A stretch of DNA of 64,000 bases, taken from a virus. The notes beneath the pieces are model-generated. The model did not search any database and had not been told where the DNA came from. It saw nothing but the letters and a program-made list of their open reading frames with translations. Position 1 is the stretch's first letter, and each line of letters opens with the position of its first letter. The position numbers and the translations under genes are program-made. Below are positions 3,381 to 49,089 of the stretch, in pieces. The stretch spans positions 37,764 to 101,763 of IMG/VR virus record IMGVR_UViG_3300037264_004923. One strand, written 5' to 3'.

Positions 3381-3388
3381 AATGCCTC

Positions 3389-3994: not shown

Positions 3995-4746
3995 GCATCT
4001 CCTTTATTGGGATCGGTGTCTTCTTGCTTCCTAAATCGCTTGTGCCAACCTATTTTCTTCCTGCTTTCTACCATTTTGGCTCGGGTTTCTTTGGAAATTA
4101 TAGTTTTGGGTTTTAGTTTGGCGGCTTCTTTCATTTTGTTTCTTGTTGCAAGAGAATGTGTCTTACCGAAGAACGCATTATTATTACCTTTATGAGCTTC
4201 GGCAATCTTTTGCTTATGCTCTTCCGTGAGAACCATACCCAGATGGGATTGCCTCATCTTATTTCTGCTTTCCTCCGAAAACTTCTTACCAAAAAGAGGA
4301 TGATTCTCGCCTGACATACGAAGGCTCATGTTTTCTTTCCACTCTTTATTATGCTCTTTCCCAAAAGCTGGATTTTTTGCCCCTAACTTACATTCTCTCA
4401 TTTTTTCTATAGACTCAGGAGAATGTTTCCTGCCCGGCACAGGACCAGCATGCCCGCCAAGTTCCCTATTGTACCCATTAGGAGTTAAAGAATTCAAGGT
4501 TCTTATCCAGTACATTTCTTTATCATCAAGTTCTTCTTTCGAATAGGCAGTATCTAAAAGAACAAAATCGAAGTTAGTACGTCCATGTTTTATCATTGCC
4601 TTGTTTATAACCAAACCGCCTTTACTTTGTGAAGTTTGAGAAAAGTGGGCAGATTTTCTCTTGTATGGATCAATGGTTTGACCGACATACAGCTTACTAT
4701 TTATGGTGTTCTCTATTATGTAAATGTATCCAACAAAACTCTGCAT
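3991..4746 (-). mobile_element. Free-standing GIY-YIG homing endonuclease with NUMOD3 repeats
   Basis: GYIYIIENTINSKLYVGQT, GYN and repeated HSPESIEKM/FSEESRNKM/HSLATRNKM. Confidence 0.9.
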
Positions 4747-5348: not shown

Positions 5349-5596
5349 TACTCCCCCCGAAGTCTATTTCGTCCGTAGTAAGCCTTGCGTCGTGTATCTT
5401 CATCTCTAATACTGATCTTGCCTTCTTCGCGTAGTCTTTCAACTCTGCGCGCTAGGCTCTTTAAAGAGCGTTCCGCCCACACCTTCTCAACGCGCAATTC
5501 ATTATGAGCATCAAGAAGTTCCTTCGCTGTTTTATTCTCCGCGTGCTCAATGAGGAAGGCGTCCTCTAAAGAGGTAAATGCTATACCGCGTCCCAT
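5348..5596 (-). CDS. Small HTH/Myb-like protein
   Basis: FTSLEDAFL...RSLKSLARRVERL. Confidence 0.5.
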   Translation of the reverse strand: MGRGIAFTSLEDAFLIEHAENKTAKELLDAHNELRVEKVWAERSLKSLARRVERLREEGKISIRDEDTRRKAYYGRNRLRGE

Positions 5597-5604
5597 AGTT
5601 CCTC

Positions 5605-5856
5605 CTAACTTCGGAACCGCTGCAGGGAGGGAGAAGAAACCTTGACCCCCTCCACTACGGTTCCGTCTTCGAGTCTTACATCCAAGGTAGAGGCTGTGGG
5701 GTCTTGTGATCCGCGAATCAATTTCGTGACCACTCCAAATTTCTCGTTGTAAAGAACTTTAGTGCCCACATCATAAATCCTACCCTGAGCGAACTCTTTC
5801 AGCTTGTTTTCTGCTGCTTCTAATCTGTTTAGAACCTTATCGATGTTATCTGTCAA
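5605..5856 (-). CDS. Hypothetical protein (SH3/KOW-like beta barrel)
   Basis: VGTKVLY..FGVVTK...DVRLEDG; GGAGG RBS. Confidence 0.55.
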   Translation of the reverse strand: MTDNIDKVLNRLEAAENKLKEFAQGRIYDVGTKVLYNEKFGVVTKLIRGSQDPTASTLDVRLEDGTVVEGVKVSSPSLQRFRS

Positions 5857-5869
5857 TGGATTGCCTCCG

Positions 5870-6463
5870 TTATTTCATCAGCCACAGCCTGTGAAGCTGG
5901 TCTTTTTCTTCGTCGGACGCATTTTCATCCACCCAAAAAATCATACGACCCCCCTCTTTAAGAAGAGGAGCCAAGTTCTGAGCTAATTCCTTTAAATCTC
6001 CCTGCGTCTCTTCATAGGCAGTATAGTGGTCTACAAAGATGAGATCGAACATAGGGAACTGCTTGGGGACTTCACGTGCCCAAGCATAAACATCAGTCAA
6101 AAGCAGATGGTGGCGAGGTAGTAATCTACCATACGCCTCGACTATCTGCTCATTGTTCTCCAGGGTTAGTAGGTGCTTGACCTTGGGGTTCGCCAAGATG
6201 ACCTTGGACGCACACCCAAGCCCTAACCCTATCTCCAAGACCCTGCCTTTGGCATATCCCATGACGTTCTTGATATACCAGTCCTGTTCTGTGGTGCTGG
6301 CATACATGATTTGCCCAACAAAAAGGTATTGCTCCCCATCTACCTCGTAGATACGAACATCGCCCTTGTTAAAAGACAACCAACCGACTTCATCCCAGAA
6401 CTTGAACGGATTTTTAGGGTCTTTTACTGGCATAAGTATAAACCTATTTCCCTTCTTTGGCAA
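5870..6463 (-). CDS. SAM-dependent methyltransferase (spermidine-synthase-like fold)
   Basis: GRVLEIGLGLG, FDLIFVD, LLKEGG. Confidence 0.75.
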   Translation of the reverse strand: MPKKGNRFILMPVKDPKNPFKFWDEVGWLSFNKGDVRIYEVDGEQYLFVGQIMYASTTEQDWYIKNVMGYAKGRVLEIGLGLGCASKVILANPKVKHLLTLENNEQIVEAYGRLLPRHHLLLTDVYAWAREVPKQFPMFDLIFVDHYTAYEETQGDLKELAQNLAPLLKEGGRMIFWVDENASDEEKDQLHRLWLMK

Positions 6464-6974
6464 CTCGAACTATGTTGACACGTTTGGCATCCTGAACCTC
6501 GTGTCCAAAGGACAGCGTGATGTCCGGCGAGGGGTGATATTCCATTACTGCTCCCCATGCCAAAAGCAGCCTCTCTACGATTTCTTTTCTACTCCCGTTC
6601 CGGTATAGGGCCCCGCAAACAACTCGCTTTACACCGTAGTGTAGAAGAGTTGACAAGCAGTTTTCGCAGGGTGTCGCATTTATGTAAGCAGTCACACCCA
6701 GCAGGTTTGGTACTCTTTTGCGAATTTGAAGGATCGCTGAGCCTTCAGCATGGACTGTTCGTAAACAGTGCTCCCTACCGTCATCCCCCATAACCAATAG
6801 ATGCCCGACTTCGTCGCACTCATCCATCTGGGAGGGAGCCCCGTTGTATCCGGTAGCCAAAATCTCCCCATCCTTAACCAAAACGCATCCGGCCCATAGC
6901 CTGTCGCAGGTGGCACGGGTAGCTACCAAATGGGCAAGGGATAGGAAGTATTCATCTTTGGTTAATCGTCGCAT
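6444..6974 (-). CDS. dCMP deaminase (ComEB family)
   Basis: ATRATC, TGYNG, HAE and PCENC. Confidence 0.9.
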   Translation of the reverse strand: MRRLTKDEYFLSLAHLVATRATCDRLWAGCVLVKDGEILATGYNGAPSQMDECDEVGHLLVMGDDGREHCLRTVHAEGSAILQIRKRVPNLLGVTAYINATPCENCLSTLLHYGVKRVVCGALYRNGSRKEIVERLLLAWGAVMEYHPSPDITLSFGHEVQDAKRVNIVRVAKEGK

Positions 6975-6975
6975 C

Positions 6976-7719
6976 TTATTCCCCTATGCTGGTTCCCGAG
7001 AAGGTCGTTCCGTGTCGTCCGTAATAAGATCGGTCTATTAGGGTTCCTTGGTAAAGAACTCCGCTTGGGACGGTGTCCCCAGCCTCATCCCCCATTCTAT
7101 ACCAGAGGTGGAGGTTTTCGAACTGTCCTATTGTGGATAGATCGGCCCCCCTTACGCCATTGTTATAGGATCCGGTTATCGTTGGGATCGTTATTGCGGC
7201 CCGATACACAGCAAACTCATCCAAATCTCCAGGAAAGAGGTCCACTACTCCCCCAGTTCTAGCTGGACGAGCACCTATTATTACATCCTGCTCCCCAGGC
7301 GTACTGATACCTGCTATTCCATTCTCGAACACCCGTCCGTTGTCCAGAGACCCGTCCACATACACGACCGCATTGGCAAAGTTGCGAAGCCGGGAATAAG
7401 GATCGCTCGTATTGTACACAAAAGCCACATGATGCCAAGTCCCGTCATTCAACAGGGAGTCTGTACGTCTGCCAGAAGTCCTGCTAAACAGCTCCAGATG
7501 ACCCTGGATCAATCTTATTCGGTTTTCCTCACCATCGCCCAGATTCTCATTTAGATAAGCACCCCAGTAGCAAATGGTGGCGTCGTTGCCGCTATGGGTA
7601 GTCCTTATCCAGAAGGTGGTGGAGCGATCTACACTCTGATCGAAAGGATAGGCAATGCCCTTATAGCCGGAAGCCACCACATAACCTTGTATTCCATCAA
7701 AAGATAGGAACTTATTCAT
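6976..7719 (-). CDS. LamG/concanavalin A-like lectin domain protein
   Basis: LNDGTWHHVAFVY, YVDG, FPGDLDEFAVY, LWYRMGD. Confidence 0.85.
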   Translation of the reverse strand: MNKFLSFDGIQGYVVASGYKGIAYPFDQSVDRSTTFWIRTTHSGNDATICYWGAYLNENLGDGEENRIRLIQGHLELFSRTSGRRTDSLLNDGTWHHVAFVYNTSDPYSRLRNFANAVVYVDGSLDNGRVFENGIAGISTPGEQDVIIGARPARTGGVVDLFPGDLDEFAVYRAAITIPTITGSYNNGVRGADLSTIGQFENLHLWYRMGDEAGDTVPSGVLYQGTLIDRSYYGRHGTTFSGTSIGE

Positions 7720-7931
7720 GTAAGTCCTAGGCGGGTCCAGGTATACCAGAAATCGTCGATGAACACTTGTGCTTTTTCCGCCGATGAAAAAAGCGTTCGA
7801 CTTACAATCCGATCCTCGTCCAGTTCATTCCATGTATCCAGACAGCGAAAGAGAGGCGCTAATACCCCGTCCTCTCGTTTATAGACTACCCAGTATCCCT
7901 TTTCAAGGTCTTTGTATTCTCCGAGGATCAT
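7716..7931 (-). CDS. Hypothetical protein
   Basis: 71-aa ORF filling an operon gap with overlapping start/stop. Confidence 0.65.
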   Translation of the reverse strand: MILGEYKDLEKGYWVVYKREDGVLAPLFRCLDTWNELDEDRIVSRTLFSSAEKAQVFIDDFWYTWTRLGLT

Positions 7932-7934
7932 GTC

Positions 7935-8864
7935 TTACTTCCAGTTTTTTTCGAGCCAATCTATGACCGGGGCGATGTCTGTGTTCTGCGCGATCACCAT
8001 AAGATCAAGGATGTTCTTCCAATCATCCAGAGGATAATCGTGAGCCAGCTGAGGATTTAGACGATAGTACTTATCCCGCAGGATTTGCTTACATTCGAAG
8101 TCTACTACATCCACAGAACCATCCATTAGAATGCCTAAAAGATGCTTTGCCCATTTAGCCAAACCCCAGTTCAGGTTGTCGCCCTCGATATGCTGTCTGA
8201 AACGCCCCGCACCCAAGGAAAGCAAGTTGATGTTCCTCAAATCTTTGTTTAGATTGCGTGGATTCAAGGCTTGCGCGAGTCCCACCATACCTGGATTATT
8301 TGCAAAGACTCCCCCATCAATGTAGCCGTCCGAGGTTGGAAAGTAAGTTGGAGCTGCTAAAGTTCGAAGTGCCAAATCTACAACCCGTACATCCAAATCG
8401 GCATCCGACCCGCGACAATTGTGGAAGATCTTTGCTTTCCAAGCCCGGGCAGAGCCCTCAGCTTCGTTATCCAGATCGAAGGTCGTGATAGCCACGCTCT
8501 TTTCGAGATCACCCAACAAGAGATCGCCAAACTGGATCTCTAACATTTTGCGCAGATTATCCGATTTGTAATCGGCACCCAAAAGCTTCCAAAAATCCTT
8601 GAATTTACCGAAAAAAGTCTCTGAAAAGATCTCCTTCGAGGCAGTTTGATACATCTCTCGTAAAGCAGCAGGGCTCTTTCCAGTTGCTAAGCCCAAGGCA
8701 ATAATGCCACCCGTAGAAGTCCCCACCAGAAGGTCTGCATCTCTGAGAATGTTGGGGTGTTTACTCTCAATCCGCTCCAAAAGACAGGCCTCAAGGATAC
8801 CACGTACCCCGCCCCCATCAAAGGAAAGAATGTTGAAAGGCTTCTTGGTAACTTGATTCCCCAT
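7935..8864 (-). CDS. Patatin-like phospholipase
   Basis: DGGGVRG, GTSTG, AAPTYF and DGG. Confidence 0.92.
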   Translation of the reverse strand: MGNQVTKKPFNILSFDGGGVRGILEACLLERIESKHPNILRDADLLVGTSTGGIIALGLATGKSPAALREMYQTASKEIFSETFFGKFKDFWKLLGADYKSDNLRKMLEIQFGDLLLGDLEKSVAITTFDLDNEAEGSARAWKAKIFHNCRGSDADLDVRVVDLALRTLAAPTYFPTSDGYIDGGVFANNPGMVGLAQALNPRNLNKDLRNINLLSLGAGRFRQHIEGDNLNWGLAKWAKHLLGILMDGSVDVVDFECKQILRDKYYRLNPQLAHDYPLDDWKNILDLMVIAQNTDIAPVIDWLEKNWK

Positions 8865-9124
8865 TATTCGAACACCCTATTCTGAGCGTCCAATTCTCTC
8901 GCCCAGTCCTCAGCAACATAAAGGGTGTGTCCTGGTTTATTGGTAGTTTGGGACACTCTAACAGGGCCTTCCACCACCATTCCGCGATCAATCAGTTCTT
9001 TGATGGCGGGACCAGAAATGTTATTCTGAAGCTTCAGTTTGTCCCGAACCTCCGTGCGAAGGATTCCAGGGTTTTCCTTGATTATAAAGAAGATCTGATC
9101 GCGAATAGAACTTGTGTAGTTCAT
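8864..9124 (-). CDS. Small winged-helix protein
   Basis: IIKENPGILRTEVRDKL...IKELIDRGMV; start placed at ATG 9124, coupled to the upstream stop. Confidence 0.7.
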   Translation of the reverse strand: MNYTSSIRDQIFFIIKENPGILRTEVRDKLKLQNNISGPAIKELIDRGMVVEGPVRVSQTTNKPGHTLYVAEDWARELDAQNRVFE

Positions 9125-10605
9125 GTTTGCTCTCTCTTCAGAATGAAACTGGGAAGCCCCTGTCCCATTGAATGTTCGTATCGCAGCGCGGCTCTCGCAG
9201 AGTTGAAGGGAATACCAAGCTTCTCTCGGACATCCGCTTCCAACCAGTCTCGCATCTCTACTAACTTCTCGGCTGCCAAGTGGTCGGTGTAGACGAAGGA
9301 TTTGTATCCGCCGCCAGGAATACCCTTGTAGTAGCTGGCGGTAGCAGAATAATCTACTTCCCAAGCGTAGAGTTTATCCCCGGTCTTAGGTTGAGTGTAA
9401 ACATACAGACCTGGCTTATCTCCTGGACGTGCTTCATCATAATACGGAGAGCCGGGGTAAGGGGTAATGATGGTACAATCAAAATCCTCGGGACGAACCT
9501 GAAGGAGCCAGTTCCTAACCGCGATAACAGACTCCTCGCTCTCACCAGGATGTCCAATAGACATGAGAGCCTTTACTTTCAAGCCGGCTGCTTTTGCAGT
9601 CTCCACGCACCGCGTGTTGTCTTCGAGAGTAGCACGTTTATTGATGTTCGTTAACATTCGAGGGGTCGCAGTTTCATACCCACATAGAAGCCATCTAAAC
9701 CCGGAACGATACAGGGCCTTTGCTTGTTCTTCATTGAATAGTTCAGATTTTACGAAGCCACGCAATCGAAACTCTACACCTAATCTATCTTGTAAATCTG
9801 TTATCTTGTTCAGCATCGGAACGAGACCTGGATTTACATTCAACTCATCATCATAGAACATGAAACCCGTGTATCCGTAAGTAGTGTAGAGAGATTCCAA
9901 CTCTTGGATGATAGAATCTGTCGTTCTCGTACGGATCATGCGAAGGCTTTTGCTATTGCGGCCGCCACAAAAACCACAACCAAAAGGACATCCCAGCTGA
10001 GAAATCAAACTGGTCGCATTCTGCCCGTCAATAGAGTAATGGTAGGAGGGCATGTCGATAAGATGTCGGGCGGGATACGAACTGTCGTTGTACTGCTTAT
10101 CCGACAGGAAAAGACCGCCTTTCGGATCGTCGGCATCAATAACTTTCGGAGCATCAGCAGTGATGGCTTGGAAGATGGCAAGTTCTCCGTCTCCCGCAAC
10201 CAATACATCCGCCAGTACTTCTAACTTTTGGCGAGCACGGAACGCTCTTCCATCCATAGCCCCCCGCTTCTGCTCCAACTTATGTGCAGCAAGGGTAAGG
10301 GTAATGTGAGGCCCGCCCAGAATGATACGAATGTGAGGACAAATGTGTCGGATGGTCTTTACGATTTCCGATACAGCAGGAAACTGAGGAGTGGTAGTAG
10401 TAATACCTATCACATCGTCCGGAGCGGTGCGGAGATAATCCTTCAGAACTTCAAGATAGTTTTCCACCCCAGAGAAGTCCAAGAGATTTACCGAATACCC
10501 ATTGGCTTCTAGGGAACCAGCAACCTTAAGTATGCCCAGGCTTACAAAGACCCGCTCGTCCAAAAGGAAAGCAGAAGGCGGGGTAATGAGACATACAGAG
10601 GTCAT
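9121..10605 (-). CDS. Cobalamin-binding radical SAM protein
   Basis: N-terminal B12-binding domain (ILGGPH) and GCPFGCGFC. Confidence 0.9.
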   Translation of the reverse strand: MTSVCLITPPSAFLLDERVFVSLGILKVAGSLEANGYSVNLLDFSGVENYLEVLKDYLRTAPDDVIGITTTTPQFPAVSEIVKTIRHICPHIRIILGGPHITLTLAAHKLEQKRGAMDGRAFRARQKLEVLADVLVAGDGELAIFQAITADAPKVIDADDPKGGLFLSDKQYNDSSYPARHLIDMPSYHYSIDGQNATSLISQLGCPFGCGFCGGRNSKSLRMIRTRTTDSIIQELESLYTTYGYTGFMFYDDELNVNPGLVPMLNKITDLQDRLGVEFRLRGFVKSELFNEEQAKALYRSGFRWLLCGYETATPRMLTNINKRATLEDNTRCVETAKAAGLKVKALMSIGHPGESEESVIAVRNWLLQVRPEDFDCTIITPYPGSPYYDEARPGDKPGLYVYTQPKTGDKLYAWEVDYSATASYYKGIPGGGYKSFVYTDHLAAEKLVEMRDWLEADVREKLGIPFNSARAALRYEHSMGQGLPSFILKREQT

Positions 10606-10608
10606 AGG

Positions 10609-11301
10609 TTACAGAGGGCGGGAGATGTCTTGGACGTCAATCTCGCCCATCTCTCCCCGATTGATTTTATCAAAGATCTCATCGTTCTGAATCTGGGCAA
10701 CAGCAGTCTTATAGTGGTTGATGTTGAAGCGTGCGGGTTCTTCTCGGGTCTTTCTCTTATAGTCAATCTCAGTTCGCTTGGTAAAGCCGACTACCTCGAC
10801 GTGGACCCTATCCTTGGGATCTTCGCTGTAATTGCAGGTTCTCTTCCATAGCCTGTACTGATAGTCGGGATAGATGTCAGTCTGCTCTCCGTCCAAAATG
10901 TTTCGGCGGGGAACACCAAAACAATCAAAGAGTTCAGTACTTTCAGGAATGACGTCAGTAAGCATGAGCAAACGTTGCCCCTTCTCGGTGATTAGAAGAG
11001 GAATAATCTCCAAGAGAGGGGGATCCAATCTTTCATCCGGATCGTGAATGTATACCCAATCAGTATTCAACTTACGCATGCCCAGGTTCTTCTGAAAGGC
11101 ATGATTATGAACCCAGGGTTGATAAAATACCCGCGCCCCCATTCTCTTTGCCCATTCCACAGAGTTATCCTGTGAACCACCATCGATAACCACAATATCG
11201 TCCGCAATGTTGTAGAACTGGGCAATCGTGGCTGCCATATGCGACTGCTCATTCTGGCAGTTGATTGCGATACCAAGGGTTGGTTTCTTATTTTCAGGCA
11301 T
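10609..11301 (-). CDS. Glycosyltransferase family 2
   Basis: VIDGGSQD, HDPDER, YPDYQYRL. Confidence 0.85.
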   Translation of the reverse strand: MPENKKPTLGIAINCQNEQSHMAATIAQFYNIADDIVVIDGGSQDNSVEWAKRMGARVFYQPWVHNHAFQKNLGMRKLNTDWVYIHDPDERLDPPLLEIIPLLITEKGQRLLMLTDVIPESTELFDCFGVPRRNILDGEQTDIYPDYQYRLWKRTCNYSEDPKDRVHVEVVGFTKRTEIDYKRKTREEPARFNINHYKTAVAQIQNDEIFDKINRGEMGEIDVQDISRPL

Positions 11302-11311
11302 ATTTCTCCCT

Positions 11312-11860
11312 CTATTTAACCTTAACCATTCCGATGCCAAACTCTACAAAAAACTCGGTGGTTTCGTGCTCCTGACCATTCACTATCTCTTCGAATACTA
11401 CACCACAATAAATCTCGCTATCCATATCCTTATAGCGACGGAACCCAATGTCATGGAATCCAATAACCCCAGGAGAGGAGATCAGAGTTTTAGCAAGTTC
11501 CCAATCTTTCTTTGTGCCATCATATGAATGATCTCCATCAATAAAGATAAGATCATAGGGTCCATTTTGTTGGATCTCCGCTATAACCTCTGGACTACTG
11601 GAATCCCCAACTATGAAATGGACCTTGGGAAACCAAGCATCAGGAATTCCGACTTCGCGACCTCTGATGTCGATGGATATACATCCCTCAGAAGCGATAT
11701 GCTGGAACATCAAAGCAGTTCCGCCTTTATTGGTGCCAATGTCCAAGATTTTCCGAGGACGCTGTCCCAAGTATTCTTCAACGGCGGCTATAAAACTGGT
11801 GAACTCTTCGCGTTGCTGTTGGATAAACGGGTTCCACCATTGATTTATTACATCATTCAT
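11312..11860 (-). CDS. Methyltransferase (Methyltransf_24-like)
   Basis: ILDIGTNKGG, YDLIFIDGDHSY, GFHD. Confidence 0.88.
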   Translation of the reverse strand: MNDVINQWWNPFIQQQREEFTSFIAAVEEYLGQRPRKILDIGTNKGGTALMFQHIASEGCISIDIRGREVGIPDAWFPKVHFIVGDSSSPEVIAEIQQNGPYDLIFIDGDHSYDGTKKDWELAKTLISSPGVIGFHDIGFRRYKDMDSEIYCGVVFEEIVNGQEHETTEFFVEFGIGMVKVK

Positions 11861-12378
11861 GGGATATAGACCAGCCCAATTCCGTATCCGTCATCCCATA
11901 CGCCCTTCTGCAGGGGGATGCTGGAGAAGAAACGGCGGATACCCTCGATGCGTAGGTCATGGAAACCTACTAATCCTCCAGAACGAACCAGAGGAGAATA
12001 CATCTGGAAGTCAGAAGAAACTCCCTCGTAAGAATGATCCCCATCGATGAATAGGAAATCGATAACAGGAACGGCCGTCTTAACCTTGTCGAATGTATCA
12101 GGGGATTTGCTATCACCCACAATAATAGGAGGGCGCTTGTCAAAGTACTGCTCGGCAGTAGCATCTCCAATATCTACACCCACTACATTACCCTCGACCC
12201 CCGCTATAATCTCCCAAACTCGAAGGCTTTTACCAGACTGGACACCAATTTCTACGATGTTGGTGTGCGGTTCCAGAGCCTGAACACGAGAGGCAACCTC
12301 CCAAAGTTCATCATCGCTGGAAGCCCACCCCTGCCCGCGAGTAGCATTACATAGTTCTACAAACTGCTGCTTATCCAT
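11857..12378 (-). CDS. Methyltransferase (Methyltransf_24-like)
   Basis: IVEIGVQSG, DFLFIDGDHSYEG, GFHD. Confidence 0.88.
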   Translation of the reverse strand: MDKQQFVELCNATRGQGWASSDDELWEVASRVQALEPHTNIVEIGVQSGKSLRVWEIIAGVEGNVVGVDIGDATAEQYFDKRPPIIVGDSKSPDTFDKVKTAVPVIDFLFIDGDHSYEGVSSDFQMYSPLVRSGGLVGFHDLRIEGIRRFFSSIPLQKGVWDDGYGIGLVYIP

Positions 12379-19017: not shown

Positions 19018-19603
19018 GCAATTCCCAATCGTTTTCTACTATGCGTCTTACATCCTTGAATCCAGCTTTCTCCAGTCGGATCCTAAAACTATCGAAGGTA
19101 TATAGAGCCTTGTGAGAGCTCCACTCCGTATAGACTCCAGGATGTGGGACTTCTCCGTCTTTCAAGGTATTGCGCTTCCAGTTAGGATCCCCTGAGATCT
19201 TCTCCCAACCATCGGGGCCTCCGGGAATATCAGAGAAACCTCCGTATAAACAGATCATAGTCTCTTCTGTGGAGTGGATACCCTCAATGTGGGCTCGGCA
19301 CATAAAGTCCAAGTCGGGCATCTTGATAGTCATTTTTCCGCCCGGCTTCAAAATTCTGTTCCATTCCAATAATACCCAGGCAATCTCGGTATAGGAAATG
19401 TGTTCTACAGCGTGGGCGGAATAAAGCTCATCCACAGATTCGCTCTTTAGCCACTCAAGGTTTCGAATGTCGGAAACCTTATTGACATTCCCACCCCCGA
19501 CCACATCTACATGATAGAACCCCTCGATGCCATGAGGACCAGAGCCAAGTTCTATCCTTACAGGTGCGCTCTCTCTTTTAGAGAGCAAGTCTTCAATCCG
19601 CAT
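18992..19603 (-). CDS. Methyltransferase (Methyltransf_11-like)
   Basis: ELGSG, HAVEH, EWNRILKPGG..PD. Confidence 0.85.
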   Translation of the reverse strand: MRIEDLLSKRESAPVRIELGSGPHGIEGFYHVDVVGGGNVNKVSDIRNLEWLKSESVDELYSAHAVEHISYTEIAWVLLEWNRILKPGGKMTIKMPDLDFMCRAHIEGIHSTEETMICLYGGFSDIPGGPDGWEKISGDPNWKRNTLKDGEVPHPGVYTEWSSHKALYTFDSFRIRLEKAGFKDVRRIVENDWELHVIAYKQD

Positions 19604-21548
19604 CTTCTTCCTTCTTTCCCTTCTTTGAGGATTTGAAGGTAAGCGCGGTCTTCTCAGGATTCAGCCCAACAGCGGCCTTGCTATTCTCTTCTATCTCATT
19701 AGAGAGAATGGCGCGAGCCAGTGGAGTATTCAAGTGTCGCTTGATTGCTCTGCGCAAAGGTCGGGCTCCGTACTTCTTATCGATACCACTATCGAGCAAG
19801 AAATTTTTAGCGGCGACACTAAAATTCAAACCCACGCCCTTGCCCTTCTGAATCTGATCTTTCACTTCATCCAACAAGATGTCCAGAATGCTTAGATAGT
19901 CATTCTTTTCGAGCTTGCGGAAATGAACGATCTCGTCCACGCGATTCAGGAACTCGGGCTTAAATCTCTGCTTCAAAGCTTCGTCTCGTGCCTTGGAAGA
20001 CTTTAGGTCCGTCTGGACAGATACATCTCCAAAACCAAGGGTCCTACTAATCTCCGAGACTTCTGCTACCCCAATGTTAGAGGTCATGATAATCACACAC
20101 TCATTAAATGGAACCTTTTTGCCCTTGTTATCGGTTAGTTCTCCGTCGTCGATGATTTGAAGGATACGATCATGAAAGTTAGAATGGGCTTTCTCGATCT
20201 CGTCAAAGAGAATGACAGAGAAAGGGCTCTTGGAAACTTCTTTGGTGAGATGCCCACCATCATCATAGCCAACATACCCCGGCGGGCTTCCCGCAAGTTT
20301 AGCGGACTCGTGCGGTTGCTGATAATCTTGGCAATCAATCCTCACTAGGGGGGCTTCCAAGCAATCTGCTAGAACCTTGGCGGTTTCAGTTTTGCCAACA
20401 CCTGTATTACCGGTGAAAAGAAGTACACCAAGAGGTTCGTGTGGTCTTTTGAGCCCCACAGACGCACGTTGGACAGCATCTGCAATGTGGTGGATTGCTT
20501 CATCCTGCCCAACAACCTTCTGTTTCATCTTATCCGCCAAAGAAATCAAAGTTTCCTTGGACAGATCAGCGAACCTCTTGCGCTTACGAGAAGATACAAT
20601 CTTATCTTCAGAGCCAGACTGGGCGATGCGTCGATTGTTTCTAATCTTGGATCTCTCCCGGGTCTTATACTGGGTGCGGACAGACTTCAAATCTACGCTC
20701 TCGAGCTTCAAAAAAGGATTGTGTTCGATGACAATCGCATAGAGTTCTTCCATTAGAATTTCGGGCTTAATCTTTTCAGAAATACCCAACTGATCCAACA
20801 GCTGGAAGACATCAGAGAAGTCTTCCACGCAACGTTCCACTACAAGAATGTGATAGCCACGGGTAGATTCAAAGGGGCTTCCGCCCAACAAGGATACCAA
20901 CGCGGCATCGCTCTCTTCGTACTTGCGTACATTAACATAGAGCCCGAGGCGATCCCATTTGTGTCCAACTAATTCATATGGAACGTCCACATTGCCTCCA
21001 CCGGCAGAATTAGAGAATGGATTATCAGGAACGTCTTCCGCGGGAGGTGCATCCAAGAGGGGCGCATCCTCATCATCTTCGCGGAATGGATTATCATCTG
21101 TCTTGTAAGGGGTAGAAGTAATAATGGCTGGACCAAAATTAGACAGCGGCGGATCTTGATCCCACAAATCGTTAGAAGTAAGCGCACGGCCCTTTTCTCC
21201 TGCACGCACCGAAGACTTCGTCTTCAGAATGTTATTCTGATTGATGACGATGTTTTCTGGTTTGAATCCTGGGCTGTGCCTAAAGATAAGATCGAGGGCC
21301 TCTTTACGGATCTCTGCCAGTTTTACGATTAACTCGGCTCTCTTGCGAATGTGATAGAAGAAGGGGCCTGCGTTCGCCATGCAAGTCCCGATAACAAAGT
21401 CTTCATAGAGATGGCGATAGATCAAACCCTTCTCAGAAGCCAGAACGGAGAGCTTATCATTTACGTCCGTCTCTGGAAACTCCAGGATCAGGACATAGAA
21501 ATCAGCTGACTCCAATAGCACATTGTGAGTAATGTACTTCTCCACCAT
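19593..21548 (-). CDS. Clp/Hsp100 ATPase with a single D2-type AAA+ module, novel N-terminal half and LGF ClpP-docking loop
   Basis: VVGQDEA, GNTGVGKTE, GSPPGYVGY, LFDEIEKAH, IMTSN, TLGFG, FKPEFLNRVD, YGARPLRR; only one Walker A. Confidence 0.88.
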   Translation of the reverse strand: MVEKYITHNVLLESADFYVLILEFPETDVNDKLSVLASEKGLIYRHLYEDFVIGTCMANAGPFFYHIRKRAELIVKLAEIRKEALDLIFRHSPGFKPENIVINQNNILKTKSSVRAGEKGRALTSNDLWDQDPPLSNFGPAIITSTPYKTDDNPFREDDEDAPLLDAPPAEDVPDNPFSNSAGGGNVDVPYELVGHKWDRLGLYVNVRKYEESDAALVSLLGGSPFESTRGYHILVVERCVEDFSDVFQLLDQLGISEKIKPEILMEELYAIVIEHNPFLKLESVDLKSVRTQYKTRERSKIRNNRRIAQSGSEDKIVSSRKRKRFADLSKETLISLADKMKQKVVGQDEAIHHIADAVQRASVGLKRPHEPLGVLLFTGNTGVGKTETAKVLADCLEAPLVRIDCQDYQQPHESAKLAGSPPGYVGYDDGGHLTKEVSKSPFSVILFDEIEKAHSNFHDRILQIIDDGELTDNKGKKVPFNECVIIMTSNIGVAEVSEISRTLGFGDVSVQTDLKSSKARDEALKQRFKPEFLNRVDEIVHFRKLEKNDYLSILDILLDEVKDQIQKGKGVGLNFSVAAKNFLLDSGIDKKYGARPLRRAIKRHLNTPLARAILSNEIEENSKAAVGLNPEKTALTFKSSKKGKKEEDAD

Positions 21549-21561: not shown

Positions 21562-22434
21562 TTAGAGTTGCGCTGCCTTGATTACCTGAATAGCCTGTTC
21601 CCGGGTAAGTTCTTCGAAAGAACTCACGGGCTGCCCATGTCCATCCACAATTGCTGCGAGAGCAATCAGAGCGGACGGAGTCAAACCCTTTCTGTTTGCC
21701 AGGTTGGTCATGGCATTCAACTGTGTAGAGTTGGGACCAGACGCTTCGGCATTGCTGGTGAAAGGATTTGCTCGAGGCGCCGCGGGGGCCGGCACAGAAA
21801 CTGGACGAGCAGGCGGAGGGGTCGGCTTCGCAAGAGGAGCCGGATTAGCTGCTCCCGCTCCTGAGAACGGATTGCCCGCAAGCTTTGGTGCTGGAGGAGC
21901 CACGGGCTTTGGGGGCGCCGGAGGAGCAACTGGTCGTGCCGGAGGAGCTCCGACAGGCGGGCGAGGGGCGGCAGGAGCTGGAGAGGAAGGGCGGGGGGCG
22001 GGGGCCGGAGGAGTTCTAAACTGCGGCGGAGTAGGAGGAGGAGCCGCGGGCTCTTCATCCTTGTAAAGCTCCAGACCAAGCCCAAGCAGGGTTGCGCATT
22101 TCTTCAAAGCGTCACTTGCGGCGCCCTTGAAAGCGGATCCAACATCAAGACCGCGGGTGATTTCGCAAGAACCAAACTGCTGCTTGGCGACATACTTACC
22201 GTCGGTGGTAGGAACAGAAAGCTCCAGACCAACCACAGCAACGTTGTCAGCAAATACATCATGGGAAACGATACGAGTGTTCCATTCACCACCAAAAGCT
22301 TCGTTCAAAGTATCGATAACGAAGTCCGGAGTAATGTAGGAAAACTCCAAACCGCCCTTGCCTGGGCGAGTCTGAATTTTATCCTTGGGAAGAGCACGAG
22401 TTAAAACGGCAAAAGCATTAGAATCAAGGGACAT
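21562..22434 (-). CDS. Rad52/Rad22-family (Sak-like) single-strand annealing protein with Pro-rich linker
   Basis: RPGKGG..FSYI, LNEAFGGEW, KGAASDALKKCA..LGLGLELY. Confidence 0.9.
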   Translation of the reverse strand: MSLDSNAFAVLTRALPKDKIQTRPGKGGLEFSYITPDFVIDTLNEAFGGEWNTRIVSHDVFADNVAVVGLELSVPTTDGKYVAKQQFGSCEITRGLDVGSAFKGAASDALKKCATLLGLGLELYKDEEPAAPPPTPPQFRTPPAPAPRPSSPAPAAPRPPVGAPPARPVAPPAPPKPVAPPAPKLAGNPFSGAGAANPAPLAKPTPPPARPVSVPAPAAPRANPFTSNAEASGPNSTQLNAMTNLANRKGLTPSALIALAAIVDGHGQPVSSFEELTREQAIQVIKAAQL

Positions 22435-26347: not shown

Positions 26348-26385
26348 AAAAAGGTGCCCAGCTTCTGTTGCTGGCGGCTGGGCGC
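26348..26385 (-). terminator. Terminator / 3' end of the tmRNA coding piece
   Basis: GCGCCCAGC...GCTGGGCACC followed by TTTTT on the minus strand. Confidence 0.7.
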
Positions 26386-26676
26386 GCCCCTTACTTTATG
26401 ATCGGGTTAGGATCTTAAGCAGTGAGTGTCTTAGCAGGCGCGAGGGTTTCTTTAATAGCAAGTTCACCCTTGTGCATTGCCGCGACATAGTCAGTTAGAG
26501 TCTGATTTAGACTTTGTAGCGCTTTTTTTTATCGCCTCGCTAACGATAGGTCGCGTAATCTCCCTCGCGTCGTCAGTCGATTCCAGTTCATCCCCAGGAT
26601 AAATAAACCTTGCTGGAGATGAGGGGATTCGAACCCCTGTGTTGTCCGACCTTAAGAGACACCGAATTACGACCAT
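26350..26676 (-). ncRNA. ssrA: Circularly permuted (two-piece) tmRNA
   Basis: In transcription order: T-arm AGGGG-TTCGAAT-CCCCT and CATCTCC-A (26621-26614); an 18-nt spacer; GGGGATG (from 26595) with D-loop AACTGGAATCGAC; G3:U70 pair; pk1 at 26517-26548; then a tag frame. Confidence 0.88.
26415..26492 (-). other. Predicted tmRNA tag reading frame (A)DYVAAMHKGELAIKETLAPAKTLTA*
   Basis: TAACT-GAC resume context after pk1; 25 codons ending GCT TAA. Confidence 0.6.
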
Positions 26677-26721
26677 CTTTTTCCCACCCGAAGGTGGGAA
26701 AAGTTCAAAATGGTTTCATCC

Positions 26722-26978: not shown

Positions 26979-28751
26979 TTACGGAAGAAATGCCGTGCAG
27001 ACATGAGAGATGCCCGGGGCGAGGCTCGCGAGCGCGCGGCGCAGGCGGACGGAGTCTTCGAGATCACAGGCCGCGCTGCCGCCGACGTCACACTTTTCGG
27101 GCGCGGCAGGCGCGCTCTCCGAGCCGGCCAGGAACGAACGCAACGCGCTCACATCCGCGGCATCGATCCGGCCGTCGTCGCTCGTGTCGCCACACTGACA
27201 GAGATCGCCAATCCCGTCGGGTGACGCCGTCGCGAGCCCGCCCGAGTCGGTCTGCTCCGCGTTCGCCTCGACCGGGCAGTCGTCGAGCGCATCCTGGATG
27301 CCGTCGCCGTCGAAGTCGCCGCTCGCCGCCGCGACCGTCCCACCGAGATGCCCGCGAACCAGTATGCCGTTCGGGCTGGCGGTCGCGAAGAGCACGTCCG
27401 CGCCGGCGAGTCCGCCAACGCTGTTCGCGTGCAGGATCATCGGACCCGGGCAGCACTCCTGGCCGATTGCGCCGGCGGGACTGGTGGCGGCGATCGTCTG
27501 GGCTACACCGAAGCGCGACGCGAGCAGTGGGTGCGGCGATGCGAGGTTGCGCTTGTCGAACGCGAGCAGCGCGAGACCGCCGTCGTTGTACGACGTCGCG
27601 GCCAGAAAGTCGCCCGAAGCGCCGAAGCTCACCTGCGAGACGTAGGAGTACACGCCGCTCGCGCCCGGCGGCGGAGAAAGCACGATCGGGTTCAGGCCGC
27701 CGCGGATCACCCGCTTGCGCAGACAGGGGACACCCCCGGCGCTCGCGTAGCTACCGTCGTTGCAGGAGGGCCGTTGCAGGCGCGCATCGACCGCCGCTGC
27801 GGGCAGCGCGGCGATTCCGCGCACGTCGACCGCGACGAGCTGGCGCAGCGTCGCGGAGCCGGCGACCGCGACCGAGCTCGTCGGGTCGAGCGCGAGTCCG
27901 CGACCCGACGGATTGCCCGGTCCGAGCGGAATGGAGCCGACGAGCCGGCCGGTCGACACCTCGAGCACGTCGATGCTGCCCTGACCCGTGACCAGCGGCG
28001 GAAAACCGGCGTCGTAGATCCCCGCGTTGGTCACCGCGACGCGTCCGCCGGGAAGCGGGGTGAGGGCGACCGGGTTCGGATCCGAGGTGATCGCGAAGAA
28101 CGGGCTCGCCGGTGTCAGCGTCGTCGTCGCTCCGGAATCGTCGAGCGCGAAGAAAAGCACCGTGCCGGGATTCCAGATCGGATTCGATCCGGCCTGGTGG
28201 ATGTTCGAGGTCGCGACGACCAGACGATTCCCGACGCGCAGCGCGGAGCTGGTGAAGCTCGTCTTGAACGACGTGATCGCGGCGCCGGCGCCGGAATTCT
28301 GGTAGCGCGTGAACGCACCCGTGATCGTGTGCTTGGTCGGCACCGACGTGCGACTCTGACCCGAGTACAGAATCGTGTACCCGGCGCCACTCGCGTAGTT
28401 GAACGGCACGACGAGCTCGCAGTTCGACGTCGTGATCCATCCCCGAGTGACTCCGGTTCCGCGCTCGAGCGCCACGTTCCCGATCGTCGGCTCGTTGAAG
28501 GGCGCCGACTCGGTGCAGTTCACATTCCCCGGCAGCGAATACGACGCGCCGACATAGGCGAGCGCTTGCGTCGGCGCGATTCGCACCTCGAAGACGCCCG
28601 GGCCGTTACTCGATGCGGCGATGAAGGCGCGGTCGGGGTTGGTCGGGTGCGTCTCGAGCGCGGGCGGCGCAAACGTGTCGACGAGCAACGTGTCGGTTGC
28701 GGCCGAGCCGACGGAGAGGGTTGCAGCGAGCAGGGCGGCCGCCACGCTCAT
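26979..28751 (-). CDS. Secreted beta-propeller-like protein with C-terminal TSP3-type and dockerin-like Ca-binding motifs
   Basis: Signal-like MSVAAALLAATL; DFDGDGIQDALDDCP and DGIGDLCQCGDTSDDGRIDAADV. Confidence 0.75.
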   Translation of the reverse strand: MSVAAALLAATLSVGSAATDTLLVDTFAPPALETHPTNPDRAFIAASSNGPGVFEVRIAPTQALAYVGASYSLPGNVNCTESAPFNEPTIGNVALERGTGVTRGWITTSNCELVVPFNYASGAGYTILYSGQSRTSVPTKHTITGAFTRYQNSGAGAAITSFKTSFTSSALRVGNRLVVATSNIHQAGSNPIWNPGTVLFFALDDSGATTTLTPASPFFAITSDPNPVALTPLPGGRVAVTNAGIYDAGFPPLVTGQGSIDVLEVSTGRLVGSIPLGPGNPSGRGLALDPTSSVAVAGSATLRQLVAVDVRGIAALPAAAVDARLQRPSCNDGSYASAGGVPCLRKRVIRGGLNPIVLSPPPGASGVYSYVSQVSFGASGDFLAATSYNDGGLALLAFDKRNLASPHPLLASRFGVAQTIAATSPAGAIGQECCPGPMILHANSVGGLAGADVLFATASPNGILVRGHLGGTVAAASGDFDGDGIQDALDDCPVEANAEQTDSGGLATASPDGIGDLCQCGDTSDDGRIDAADVSALRSFLAGSESAPAAPEKCDVGGSAACDLEDSVRLRRALASLAPGISHVCTAFLP

Positions 28752-28962
28752 GGCGTCCTCCCGCGCACGCGCAGCAGCCAGAGCGTCTGATTCGGCAGCG
28801 GCTGACCGAGCGAATCCGAGCGCTGCTCGTGAGTCAGGTTCGCGGCCTCGATCGATAGCGTCAGATCCGCGGGAAACAGCGCAAGCCCTGGCACGCGGCG
28901 CGGCCGGAGGATCACGCCCGCGTCGACCTGGAGCGCGGCGTCCGAGAGCGTCGCACGGCCAA
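28748..28962 (-). pseudogene. 3' fragment of a TonB-dependent receptor (within the insert)
   Basis: LTLSIEAANLTHEQRSDSLGQPLPNQTLWLLRVRG resembles the TBDR C-terminal NL..G.P.P motif; stop overlaps the next ATG. Confidence 0.55.
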
Positions 28963-28985
28963 CCTCCATGTTTTTCTCCCATGTC

Positions 28986-34191: not shown

Positions 34192-34997
34192 TTCTTTCCA
34201 AACTTTCCATAAACCCGATGGTGCTCTTGATAAGAACCTTTGCTACCATCGGTAGCGGTGTAATCTGATACAGAAGATCCGCGATAATGAATACCCTCTT
34301 TGAGGACACTCTTTACAGCGAACCATAGTTTGGTCTGTTGCTCTTCGGTTAGAGAGGTTCCCAGAACACCTGGATGAACCTTGGCGACGAAGCAGGCTTC
34401 ATCTGTGTAGATGTTTCCTACCCCCGCCAAATTTGCTTGGTCAAGCAGTATTGCTTTTACACTTCTCTTGCGGCGAATGATTTTTTGGAACTCCGCCAAT
34501 GAAACTCCCAAGGCGTCGGGACCCAAGCCCCGTAGTCCAGGGATGTCTAACTCTTCGATGCTCTGAACATTCTCTGCTAACCAGATCTCGCCGAACAAGC
34601 GCACATCGTTGAAAGCCAGCTCCAAATCTTCTTCGCGGCCGCCTTCGTACAGATCGGAAAGCTCCAGCATGAAGTGCGTATGCTTATGGATGTTGTCGTC
34701 GCCGCTAAAGCGATCATCGAAACTTATCTGAGGAATAGGACGAAGAAGAAGACGACCAGTCATCCCCAAGTGAAAAACTATTACATTGCCATTGATCAGG
34801 GGAAGCAGAATGTACTTACCTTTTCGCAATACGGTGCTAATCTCTTGTCCAATCACACCTTCATAAAAGGCAAAGGGATCGTTGTTTAGGAGGTGCTTCT
34901 CTGCCTTCTGCCGAATAACCAAAGCGGTAATGGTTCGCCCAGAAATAGCCGGGCGTAGATCCCTAACAATTGTTTCGCACTCAGGAAGCTCAGGCAT
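34101..34997 (-). CDS. mutM: Formamidopyrimidine-DNA glycosylase
   Basis: MPELPE, RKGKY, HLGMTG, GVGNIY, C-terminal zinc finger. Confidence 0.95.
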   Translation of the reverse strand: MPELPECETIVRDLRPAISGRTITALVIRQKAEKHLLNNDPFAFYEGVIGQEISTVLRKGKYILLPLINGNVIVFHLGMTGRLLLRPIPQISFDDRFSGDDNIHKHTHFMLELSDLYEGGREEDLELAFNDVRLFGEIWLAENVQSIEELDIPGLRGLGPDALGVSLAEFQKIIRRKRSVKAILLDQANLAGVGNIYTDEACFVAKVHPGVLGTSLTEEQQTKLWFAVKSVLKEGIHYRGSSVSDYTATDGSKGSYQEHHRVYGKFGKKCVECESSIERVKVSGRSTHFCPSCQPKEA

Positions 34998-35464
34998 TAT
35001 TCCTCCTGTTCTTTTCGTGACAAGTAAAAGGCCGGGAGGTTCTTATTCGCGGAGATGTCCGCGTAGGAACCCCGAAAAATGTAAGCCGCAATACCAAGAC
35101 ATGTATTACCAGGCAGCGCCTTGATAACAGAACGAGCAGCACCAAACGAGGTAATAACGTCATCAACGATCAGATAGTTTCCAGATTGAAACTCTGGACC
35201 TCGTACCTTACCAGACTTATCCACTATAACCAAAGGCCTCTTGGAGGCAAATGCTGCAAGGAACCCCGGGATAATTCCACCAATAGCAGGGCTCGCAATG
35301 AAATTTACTCGTCGCATAATGTCATTAGGAACTTGCTGGAGAAGCTGCTCTATATACACAGCAGCCTCGGCAGGTTTAAGCAGATCAAAATCATAGAAAA
35401 TCTTGGACTGACGTTCGGAAGAAAGAACGAAATCGCCCTCGACACGACACTCTTCAAACATCAT
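34997..35464 (-). CDS. Type I phosphoribosyltransferase (orotate PRT-like)
   Basis: GDFVLSSERQS..YD, IVDDVITS. Confidence 0.82.
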   Translation of the reverse strand: MMFEECRVEGDFVLSSERQSKIFYDFDLLKPAEAAVYIEQLLQQVPNDIMRRVNFIASPAIGGIIPGFLAAFASKRPLVIVDKSGKVRGPEFQSGNYLIVDDVITSFGAARSVIKALPGNTCLGIAAYIFRGSYADISANKNLPAFYLSRKEQEE

Positions 35465-46911: not shown

Positions 46912-49089
46912 TTAAGATCTGCTCTTATCGAGCTCTGACAAGCGGGCAACAACCATCTTACCTATACGATCCCAAGTAAAGTTCTCTGATATGTAATCTC
47001 GCGCCTTGGCACCCTTCGCACGGGACTCATCTCTGTTATTGTAGACGTGGCGCATTATGTTTATGGCGTTCTCCAAATCTGGTTCGCACCAATACTGGTC
47101 GCCTCGGTAGTACGGGGAAAATTTATTCATCCCGCATACGGGCGTCAAAGTGTAATTCGTCAAATAGCTATTATCTGGCTTCAAAAATTCCGTCTGTCCT
47201 CCATATCCTGGAGTGATGACGGGCTTGCCACAGGCTGCCGCTTCAAAGTGTGGAAGTCCCCAACCCTCGGATCGCTGTAGAAGTATAAAACAATCTGAGC
47301 GTTTGTGAAGAGCAAGAATGTTCTCCCGGCTCATATTCTCTACAACCAGAAACATTTTCGGAAAGTGTGGCAAGTTGATGAAGTTCTTGTATTCCATAAT
47401 CAGCTTACGAATCTGTTCTTTATCGCCACTATGATCGAAGAGGTAGGTCTTCAATACCAAAATTACATCCTCTACCCCACTGAAAGCAGCGCAGTAAGCG
47501 GAGAGAAGAGCGTAAGGATTCTTTCGCTCCTGCCATTGGAAAATGGAAGTGAAGACGAAAGGATTTCCGTCCAGCCCATTAAGATCGAAGGTAGGAAGAG
47601 AACCCATGTTCGGAACCTCTATGGCGTGAGGAACTTTGTGTAGAGGTACCGTAACGCCAGACTCTTTGAATACCTTCATGTTCCAGTCGCAGGGCAACCA
47701 AACCTCATTCGCTTTATTACAGGCTGTTACCCAAGTAGGATGAATCTTGCTAGACTCCCACACAGTATATCCGATGATGTACTTGTTCTTTTCGAAGCGC
47801 GTAAAGTTTTCCCAGAGGTCTGGGGTGGAGTGGACGATTACCTTATCGTAATCTATTCGGGCATTGATTAGCTCCCGAAGGGTATCTCCGTCCTTTCCCA
47901 GATCAGGGCGAGTACGCTCAAAGCTAATAGGCGCTAAGGTAACCGGATAGCCCTGACGATGGATAGACAGAACATAATTCCTGGCTGCCTCGGCATAGCC
48001 AGAGTTTCCGCACCACACCGCTTTGCCGTTCCTTCGAACAAAGAGAGTGTGATTAGGAACTGACGCGCAATACACCTTGCCCTTATATGTGATGCTCGTA
48101 TTTTTGGTAGCATCTCCGTTTCCCCAATTGGCGCCGTCTATAGCACAGAGTTGTTGTTTCCAGCGGACAGAAATGTTCCAGTTATCTTCTCTACAAACAC
48201 AATCTCTACCATAAATTTGTATCTTGTCTCCTTTTTCCTGAACCTTGGTATAAGAACCACTCAGCCCAGTTTTCAAAAGAAGCTCCATAAAATCATCTCG
48301 TAATCTAATGGAAGCAGTAGTGTAAGAAGAGCCTCCGTCTTTAGGCGCATGTCCATCTCCTAACATTAGAGCACTAAATAGTACCAGGAGTTGATTGCTG
48401 GAACACTGGTTCAGTATTTCACGAGGAATATACTTGTGATACTTATCTCCAAATGTAGATTTCAAATAAATAGCCAAGTTTTTGTCATTTACTATAGCAC
48501 GTTCTTCCTTCCTTACATTCACCTTATTGGTGGTTATTCTCTGTAAGGCGGCCGCCATTTTATCAAGGTGAATACCCGTCTGCCTTATTTGAACAATGTA
48601 GTGCTTGTTAGGAGTTACGGTAGAGGAACCTTCAGAAAGATAATAGCCCAAAAACTCCAACCACTCTTCTGTTTTTATTTGGCGACCACAAATTTCCACG
48701 AAAGGTAAATCAGGAACGGCGTTAAGGCAATCTTTTTTGAATAGTCTATACTTGCCTAAAACTTGCGCAGCCTTTTCAAAACGGAACCCAGAGCATTTTC
48801 GATTGTTTCTTCTAAAGATTTCAGGTGCAACGTACATGTTATGGTCAGGCGTAACCAAAAGATCTATACCGGCCCTGTGGTTATAGAAATGGCACATTTC
48901 CCCTTCCCAATCTTTGGCTATAAGTTGCTCAGGTTTATGATACTCCAAGTAACCAGAAGGATTCAAAGTGGCAAGGGGGTCTCCGAAGGATAGTTCTGAA
49001 AAGAATTTCCAACCGTCGGCAGTCAAGACTTCAGTCTCACTATCGTAACATCCATCAAAAACGGGACCGATATACTTTACGCCTGCCAT
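46912..49089 (-). CDS. GT4 glycosyltransferase interrupted by an intein
   Basis: FDG|SGYAEAAR after splicing, ERKN, RSEGWGLPHFEA. Confidence 0.9.
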   Translation of the reverse strand: MAGVKYIGPVFDGCYDSETEVLTADGWKFFSELSFGDPLATLNPSGYLEYHKPEQLIAKDWEGEMCHFYNHRAGIDLLVTPDHNMYVAPEIFRRNNRKCSGFRFEKAAQVLGKYRLFKKDCLNAVPDLPFVEICGRQIKTEEWLEFLGYYLSEGSSTVTPNKHYIVQIRQTGIHLDKMAAALQRITTNKVNVRKEERAIVNDKNLAIYLKSTFGDKYHKYIPREILNQCSSNQLLVLFSALMLGDGHAPKDGGSSYTTASIRLRDDFMELLLKTGLSGSYTKVQEKGDKIQIYGRDCVCREDNWNISVRWKQQLCAIDGANWGNGDATKNTSITYKGKVYCASVPNHTLFVRRNGKAVWCGNSGYAEAARNYVLSIHRQGYPVTLAPISFERTRPDLGKDGDTLRELINARIDYDKVIVHSTPDLWENFTRFEKNKYIIGYTVWESSKIHPTWVTACNKANEVWLPCDWNMKVFKESGVTVPLHKVPHAIEVPNMGSLPTFDLNGLDGNPFVFTSIFQWQERKNPYALLSAYCAAFSGVEDVILVLKTYLFDHSGDKEQIRKLIMEYKNFINLPHFPKMFLVVENMSRENILALHKRSDCFILLQRSEGWGLPHFEAAACGKPVITPGYGGQTEFLKPDNSYLTNYTLTPVCGMNKFSPYYRGDQYWCEPDLENAINIMRHVYNNRDESRAKGAKARDYISENFTWDRIGKMVVARLSELDKSRS
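48004..49050 (-). mobile_element. Intein with LAGLIDADG homing endonuclease (349 aa)
   Basis: CYDSETEVLT (block A), VTPDH (block B), FLGYYLSEG and LMLGDG, VYC, WCGN|S. Confidence 0.93.

Follow-up and report, generated by a model that had tools for sequence, protein, structure and literature searches.

A divergent two-piece tmRNA gene predicted in an uncultured jumbo phage

We analyzed a 64,000-nucleotide stretch of viral DNA, hereafter the window, which corresponds to bases 37764-101763 of the 101,763-bp IMG/VR viral contig IMGVR_UViG_3300037264_004923 (CheckV completeness of 34%). Gene products of the window include a family A DNA polymerase, a DnaB helicase, a ribonucleotide reductase, a PD-(D/E)XK exonuclease, PhoH, glycosyltransferases, ClpP and a Clp ATPase. 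Its DNA polymerase shares less than 30% identity with that of any isolate phage and 58-71% identity with those of five IMG/VR contigs. A polymerase-related contig with direct terminal repeats measures 295,848 bp, is rated complete and encodes a large terminase, and a tmRNA of the same clade as the one described here is found in a second record rated complete (297,725 bp). Since the complete records related through the polymerase or the tmRNA span 296-298 kb, the window is a piece of an uncultured jumbo phage of ~300 kb.

On the minus strand, at ~26702-26348, the window carries a gene that, judged by its sequence and predicted fold, is a circularly permuted two-piece tmRNA. The acceptor piece is transcribed first (26614-26674) and was delimited by Rfam alignment, RNAalifold and pair counts, with compensatory changes in every helix. 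It comprises the 5' strands of helix 2 (GGTCG at 26674-26670, CG at 26664-26663, then 26660-26654 and 26648-26643), a T-arm with 5 bp and the loop TTCGAAT (26638-26622) and the acceptor 3' strand CATCTCC (26621-26615), followed by the discriminator A at 26614. An 18-nt intervening segment starting with GCA (26613-26596), expected to be removed in maturation, leads into the coding piece. The first part of this piece (26549-26595), delimited by the same three approaches, begins with the acceptor 5' strand GGGGATG (26595-26589) and includes the D-loop analogue AACTGGAATCGA and the 3' strands of helix 2, which end in CGACC (26553-26549). A previous reading of the sequence alone had placed the 3' half of the tRNA-like domain ahead of the 5' half with an 18-nt spacer, as the minus-strand sequence indeed does. 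It had also proposed an acceptor stem paired at all seven positions with a G3:U70 pair, and this holds: G3 at 26593 pairs with the U at 26617, the U:G pair is invariant in 14/14 homologues, and the neighboring pairs covary.

The coding piece continues with an H-type pseudoknot 1 (26517-26548), in which stem 1 pairs 26548-26544 with 26534-26530 and stem 2 pairs 26542-26538 with 26521-26517. A tag reading frame of 29 codons follows (26415-26504), probably running from CAG at 26504-26502 to TAA at 26417-26415 and ending in -TLTA. Downstream of the tag lies an H-type pseudoknot 2 (26356-26388), formed by GGCG 26388-26385 with CGCC 26376-26373 and by 26383-26377 with 26362-26356, and holding the conserved loop AGCAACAGAA at 26372-26363. 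The gene is flanked on its 5' side by a hairpin (26679-26702) and on its 3' side by ACC and five T (26348-26355).

We then examined whether this architecture is conserved. A pattern built from the clade was run on viral and metagenome contigs and, together with the polymerase-related contigs, brought the set to 14 distinct sequences including the window (alignment A2). RNAalifold recovered the acceptor stem, the T-arm, all four segments of helix 2 and, from pseudoknot 1, stem 1. Pairs were counted over these helices after stem 2 of that pseudoknot had been entered manually, giving 40 pairs. Across the 14 homologues, 96.2% of cells were paired, compared with 39-49% when the partners were slid by 1-3 columns. 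Compensatory changes on both sides were found at 28/40 pairs, and none of 500 shuffles reached the observed pairing values. The tmRNA fold is real, far beyond chance.

Helix 2, which joins the two pieces, consists of 19 pairs in 4 helices, 14 of which show compensatory changes among the 14 homologues. The sequence-only reading had described this helix as GGTCG pairing with CGACC, extended by TAAT with ATTA. Covariation backs the GGTCG/CGACC part, but the TAAT/ATTA extension occurs in the window alone; as relatives do not keep it, we rejected it. The conserved continuation is instead a 2-bp CG/CG step followed by a 7-bp helix between 26660-26654 and 26566-26560. Pseudoknot 1, which the same reading had described as clean (TATCG/CGATA and TAGCG/CGCTA), was recovered as such at 26548-26517 and covaries in homologues. 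Its stem 1 is fully paired in 14/14 sequences and stem 2 in 11/14, with one mismatch in the other three, and each stem occurs in 7 different sequences. For pseudoknot 2, stem 2 is formed in 12/14 sequences and both stems in 10/14, again with differing sequences.

The gene was also recognized by a covariance model. With Rfam release 15, RF04321 (tmRNA_permuted, gathering score of 47 bits) matched 26674-26475 with 56.3 bits over the full model (1-213; E = 2.8e-08 for the window and 1e-11 when the whole contig was searched), and the tRNA domain alone scored 57.9 bits. RF04321 was the sole family above its gathering score in an Rfam scan of the window, which returned no glutamine riboswitch. Together with the covariation and the viral nature of the contig, this score bears out the earlier proposal of a permuted two-piece tmRNA in a phage. 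The window's score is the lowest in its clade (56 against 78-98 bits), and RF04321 was found in three of the five polymerase-related contigs with 83-98 bits.

Lineage-specific models gave lower support. The beta_tmRNA model RF01850 (gathering score of 84) reached 53.1 bits on the window, aligning over model positions 52-188 only, and 56-65 bits on the clade relatives, all below 84. The alpha_tmRNA model RF01849 scored below beta_tmRNA on the window and was dropped in clan competition. The clade thus reaches the threshold of the generic RF04321 and of no lineage-specific Rfam model, so that a check with Rfam models suggested alongside the original reading came out positive for the generic permuted family but not for the beta and alpha ones. 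Neither the window nor the complete relatives G001 and G006 gave a match at the gathering score of RF00023, the model for standard one-piece tmRNA. The other suggested check, an ARAGORN call, failed: at default and relaxed settings alike, the window gene was not called and spurious low-score calls appeared elsewhere. When run on the 14 clade members, ARAGORN called six relatives as permuted tmRNAs and missed 8/14; huge-phage surveys of translation-related genes therefore undercount this clade.

The CCA end is another divergent trait. As had been noted from the sequence, the window does not encode CCA, and GCA follows the discriminator A. GCA occupies this position in the window, L041 and L091 only, with CCA in all other relatives. 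Permuted tmRNAs usually encode CCA, although this is not obligatory, the literature describing them as 'not always encoding CCA' (PMC11915505). It is encoded by all the remaining IMG/VR permuted tmRNAs that we found, the three exceptions all belonging to the window's clade. The same picture was seen over the 60 viral contigs with a permuted tRNA-like domain (IMG/VR loci L024-L083), where an encoded CCA was absent only in that clade.

The two ends of the gene differ in their conservation. The hairpin directly 5' of the tmRNA has, by sequence and fold, a 10-bp stem and a UUCG loop; the TTCG hairpin reported earlier just upstream is indeed present, as an 8-bp core at 26700-26681. The closest relative, L088, has the same hairpin, five relatives have unrelated hairpins at that place and seven have none. 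DNA homology between the window and L088 spans 26698, where the hairpin has its foot, to 26355; the hairpin therefore travels with the tmRNA unit. It probably either forms the 5' end structure of the acceptor piece or serves in processing or stability. We rejected it as a canonical terminator, as no U-run follows the hairpin on either strand. At the other end, a terminator scan picked out the ACC and T-run directly after stem 2 of pseudoknot 2, which probably act as an intrinsic terminator and mark where the coding piece ends. This T-run is found in the window only, and most relatives run directly into the ribosome-binding site of the next gene. In L041, L084, L086, L088 and others, for instance, the distance from pseudoknot 2 to the next ribosome-binding site and ATG is ~10-15 nt, without a terminator. 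Because the tmRNA of these relatives meets the next gene in this way, their coding piece probably shares a transcript with an mRNA, from which processing would release it.

We further investigated the tag. The stop codon of the window aligns with the stops of all 14 sequences, and the inferred resume codon lies ~10-12 nt past pseudoknot 1 in 14/14, behind an A/T-rich motif. By homology, the resume codon of the window is probably CAG (Gln) at 26504-26502, 12 nt after pseudoknot 1 and behind a TAAAT motif, as in relatives. In-frame alternatives are AAT, one codon upstream, and GCG at 26483. A start at GCG 26483, behind TATGTC, was dropped, as it lies 33 nt past pseudoknot 1 compared with ~10-12 nt in 14/14; since this GCG is in the CAG frame, the end of the tag is unchanged by the choice of start. 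Tags of the clade are 28-38 residues long (14 sequences), while the commonest length in a curated tmRNA database is 10 (PMC11915505). They share a core NSLVEYA followed by a KEF/KEL segment, and end mostly in -AIAA or -ALAA, compared with -TLTA in the window. Resume codons in the clade encode Gly, Asp, Asn or Ala, and probably Gln in the window. In the six relatives called by ARAGORN, its tags agree with the frames derived here.

The pattern of substitutions in the tag is that of a coding sequence. Between the window and L088, differences at the first, second and third codon positions number 4/2/9, with 7 synonymous and 3 non-synonymous codons; between L093 and L089 they number 3/2/16, with 13 synonymous and 3 non-synonymous codons. 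This excess at third positions indicates that the frame is translated and that the tag peptide is under purifying selection. Given the unusual -TLTA end and CAG resume codon, the efficiency of tagging or the degradation of tagged proteins may differ from the usual in the window's phage.

Other searches for relatives of this gene gave little. A blastn search against isolate phages returned 31-nt T-arm matches and nothing more, and scanning viral contigs for an exact pattern with the acceptor sequence of the window gave no match. The clade pattern, applied to the genomes of 185,579 bacterial and archaeal species, hit four loci, all high-GC and without tmRNA features. One metagenome locus, L090, also matched the pattern and was likewise high-GC and devoid of tmRNA features. 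All five were judged by eye to be chance matches and dropped as relatives, and hence the searches point to no bacterial source or host.

Two-piece tmRNAs are known in phages. The sequence-only reading, which knew of no phage case, was mistaken on this point: Buchholz et al. (2022) counted 53 two-piece forms among 133 unique phage tmRNAs and described such genes in the Methylophilales phage Melnitz, in pelagimyophages and in other aquatic phages (PMC9004378), and tmRNAs are also listed by huge-phage surveys (PMC7162821). With one strict DNA pattern, we found permuted tRNA-like domains on 60 IMG/VR contigs, in ~31 sequence clusters. Among 20 representatives of IMG/VR permuted tmRNAs, 13 pass the beta_tmRNA threshold and 3 the alpha_tmRNA threshold. 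Like the tmRNAs of Melnitz and similar phages, the window gene is a permuted ssrA of a large lytic-type phage in which no SmpB was found, and its acceptor piece and short spacer likewise precede a coding piece containing pseudoknot 1, tag and pseudoknot 2. It differs from them in its lineage, which is distinct by the DNA polymerase criterion given above (less than 30% identity to any isolate phage), in a tag about three times longer, in the unencoded CCA and in the lack of a glutamine riboswitch in the window. It also differs from the genes surveyed by Buchholz et al. in that ARAGORN, the tool used there, does not call it. The window gene is therefore a divergent member of the known phage two-piece tmRNAs and not the first phage case.

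Among bacterial tmRNAs, the closest lineage model is the betaproteobacterial one. Sharkady and Williams reportedly described the betaproteobacterial two-piece tmRNA in 2004. RF01850, which represents it, is the best-matching lineage model, its tRNA-like domain and helix 2 aligning with the window at positions 52-188, and many IMG/VR phage tmRNAs carrying the window's pseudoknot-2 loop motif pass it. In contrast, the window has no match to the model's 5' leader, tag region or 3' hairpin, and the window tag is far longer than those of the beta-passing phage relatives examined. For the hallmarks of the beta lineage we relied on the Rfam model and on a review (PMC3985003). The window gene is also alike in design to the Caulobacter-type tmRNA, for which an experimentally proven system exists: one precursor is cut into two base-paired RNAs that are active in tagging. 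This alphaproteobacterial two-piece tmRNA is said to have been described by Keiler, Shapiro and Williams in 2000. It differs in that its model RF01849 scores below the beta model on the window, and in its tag family.

We next looked at the genes encoded around the tmRNA. The phage clpP (37821-38429, minus strand) has an intact Ser-His-Asp triad and scores 247 bits with Pfam and 284 with an NCBIfam ClpP subfamily model (cut-off of 249). A single-ring Clp-type AAA+ unfoldase (19593-21548, minus strand) was identified by Pfam AAA_2 and ClpB_D2-small and by NCBIfam. It resembles the D2 ring of ClpA/ClpB and carries an LGF tripeptide at residue 504, the site of the ClpP-docking loop in ClpA and ClpC. 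More widely, high-scoring ClpP proteins (~245-262 bits) occur both in phages with long tags and in another group, which has a beta-passing tmRNA; weaker ClpP-family matches in other IMG/VR phages are probably prohead proteases. A class II nucleotidyltransferase of 488 residues with an HD domain, whose best matches are CCA-adding enzymes, is encoded on the window's own contig (G000) outside the window, and a nucleotidyltransferase of the CCA-adding type is also present in G001. In the initial 12 kb of the G000 contig, also outside the window, ARAGORN called ten tRNA genes; the tRNA genes and the nucleotidyltransferase are placed at 668-11918 and 34646-35059 of that contig. SmpB was not found in the window's contig (~34% of the genome) or in the complete relative G001; a phage SmpB gene might sit on the part of the genome beyond this contig, although G001 argues otherwise. 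Downstream of the tmRNA, a 205-residue protein, a nucleoside deoxyribosyltransferase-like protein and PhoH are syntenic with relatives; the 205-residue protein had no match when used as a query against viral contigs.

Taken as a whole, and as read from its sequence, the locus is very probably a circularly permuted ssrA gene that functions in an uncultured jumbo phage of ~300 kb. Two-piece tmRNAs have the layout pseudoknot 1, tag, pseudoknot 2 and are processed by RNase P and tRNase Z (PMC3985003). By analogy with this family and with the Caulobacter-type two-piece tmRNA, from which we infer how the RNA is processed, charged and taken into ribosomes and what becomes of tagged proteins, a single minus-strand transcript would contain the acceptor piece, the 18-nt spacer and the coding piece. 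RNase P would cut 5' of GGGGATG, at 26595, and a tRNase Z-type cut or trimming after the discriminator A at 26614 would remove the spacer. Since GCA is encoded, CCA would be added after transcription, possibly by the phage's own CCA-adding-type enzyme. The two RNAs would be kept together by the acceptor stem and helix 2, and the host AlaRS would charge the molecule via G3:U70. It would enter stalled ribosomes with the host SmpB, both host factors being assumed to be compatible with the phage tmRNA. Translation would resume ~12 nt past pseudoknot 1, probably at CAG 26504, adding the 29-residue tag that ends in -TLTA and releasing the ribosome at TAA. The likely benefit to the phage is that ribosomes are kept free and truncated proteins are cleared during infection.

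Other readings of the locus bear on its history, and these find little room. The permuted order could have arisen independently in the lineage of the window's phage, as the first reading had suggested. The failure of the clade to reach any lineage-specific Rfam threshold (the best being beta, with 53-65 bits against 84) and the absence of a true match to the clade pattern in the 185,579 bacterial and archaeal species genomes would fit such an event. Nevertheless, the gene breaks at the same point as other permuted tmRNAs and has their succession of elements, with pseudoknot 1, tag and pseudoknot 2 laid out alike. The CAACAGAA-type loop of pseudoknot 2 recurs in 12/27 of the other IMG/VR phage permuted tmRNAs examined, among them ones passing the beta or alpha models. 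Because the gene shares both this usual layout and this loop motif with other phage permuted tmRNAs, we consider a separate permutation very unlikely. That the window copy is a decaying relic is exceedingly improbable. It does have the lowest RF04321 score of its clade (56 compared with 78-98 bits), it is missed by ARAGORN, GCA replaces CCA, and its resume codon and tag end are odd; but the acceptor stem, the T-arm and both pseudoknots are free of mismatches, every helix is intact, L088 has a tag of the same family with mostly synonymous changes, and GCA is also found in two otherwise canonical relatives.

A second set of alternatives concerns what the RNA does. It could act as a decoy that blocks host trans-translation by taking up SmpB or AlaRS, without any tagging. 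Such an action has been reported for the tag-less tRNA-like RNA of mycobacteriophage DS6A, and a phage tmRNA form that has no coding sequence and inhibits the endogenous tmRNA is cited in the literature (PMC11915505); the lack of a detected phage SmpB means that the host protein would be needed. Yet the clade retains an intact frame, resume context, pseudoknot 1 and stop codon, none of which a decoy needs, and the tag has a coding substitution pattern, making this reading highly improbable. The long conserved tag might also constitute a private degron or adaptor handle for the phage ClpP and Clp unfoldase, orthogonal to the host ClpXP, which we regard as a tentative possibility rather than a likely one. 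In its favor, the tags of 28-38 residues, compared with the usual 10, are under purifying selection, a true ClpP is encoded by the phage together with an unfoldase bearing an LGF loop, and ClpP is also present in complete relatives with a long tag. However, a true ClpP (~262 bits) occurs in another group, with a beta-passing tmRNA and a shorter tag of the ANE...ALAA type in its representative. The link to ClpP is therefore not specific to long tags, and the idea of such a specific association was weakened accordingly. In addition, most tags of the clade end in the canonical -AIAA or -ALAA, readable by host proteases. It is doubtful, for its part, that the 28-38-residue tag is a phage-specific handle leading to the phage ClpP and single-ring unfoldase or to another phage factor. 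If it were, the handle would route tagged host or phage nascent chains and would form a private protein-quality or host-shut-off circuit built on the host SmpB and AlaRS.

The preferred reading, a functional permuted tmRNA gene of a jumbo phage, leaves existing knowledge on the origin and working of permuted tmRNAs unchanged. What the clade adds is a divergent subfamily whose tags are long, whose resume codons vary and in which some members do not encode CCA. The combination of a long tag with a phage ClpP, an unfoldase and a CCA-adding enzyme makes it a testable case of ribosome rescue and proteolysis in large phages.

Three other genes of the window stand out. Directly upstream of the tmRNA, a 2-kb gene (26979-28982, minus strand) has 65-73% GC, compared with ~48% GC for the phage. 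Its product contains a thrombospondin type 3 repeat and ends in a dockerin-like C-terminus, and the Atlas proteins that resemble it are dockerin or beta-propeller proteins from sediment bacteria. None of the relatives was found to carry a homologue at this locus, and the homology with L088 breaks at the tmRNA hairpin, before this gene, which looks like a recent foreign insertion beside the tmRNA. A second GC peak (63% at 21600-22200) falls in a 290-residue ORF (21562-22434, minus strand). Relatives match residues 1-128 and 225-290 of this ORF and leave the middle unmatched, so the GC-rich middle is divergent or inserted. Finally, a 725-residue glycosyltransferase ORF (46912-49089, minus strand) contains a LAGLIDADG_3 domain at residues 238-295, and its flanks have PHROG matches to thymidylate synthase, ribonucleotide reductase and PhoH families, which suggests an intein or homing-endonuclease insertion.
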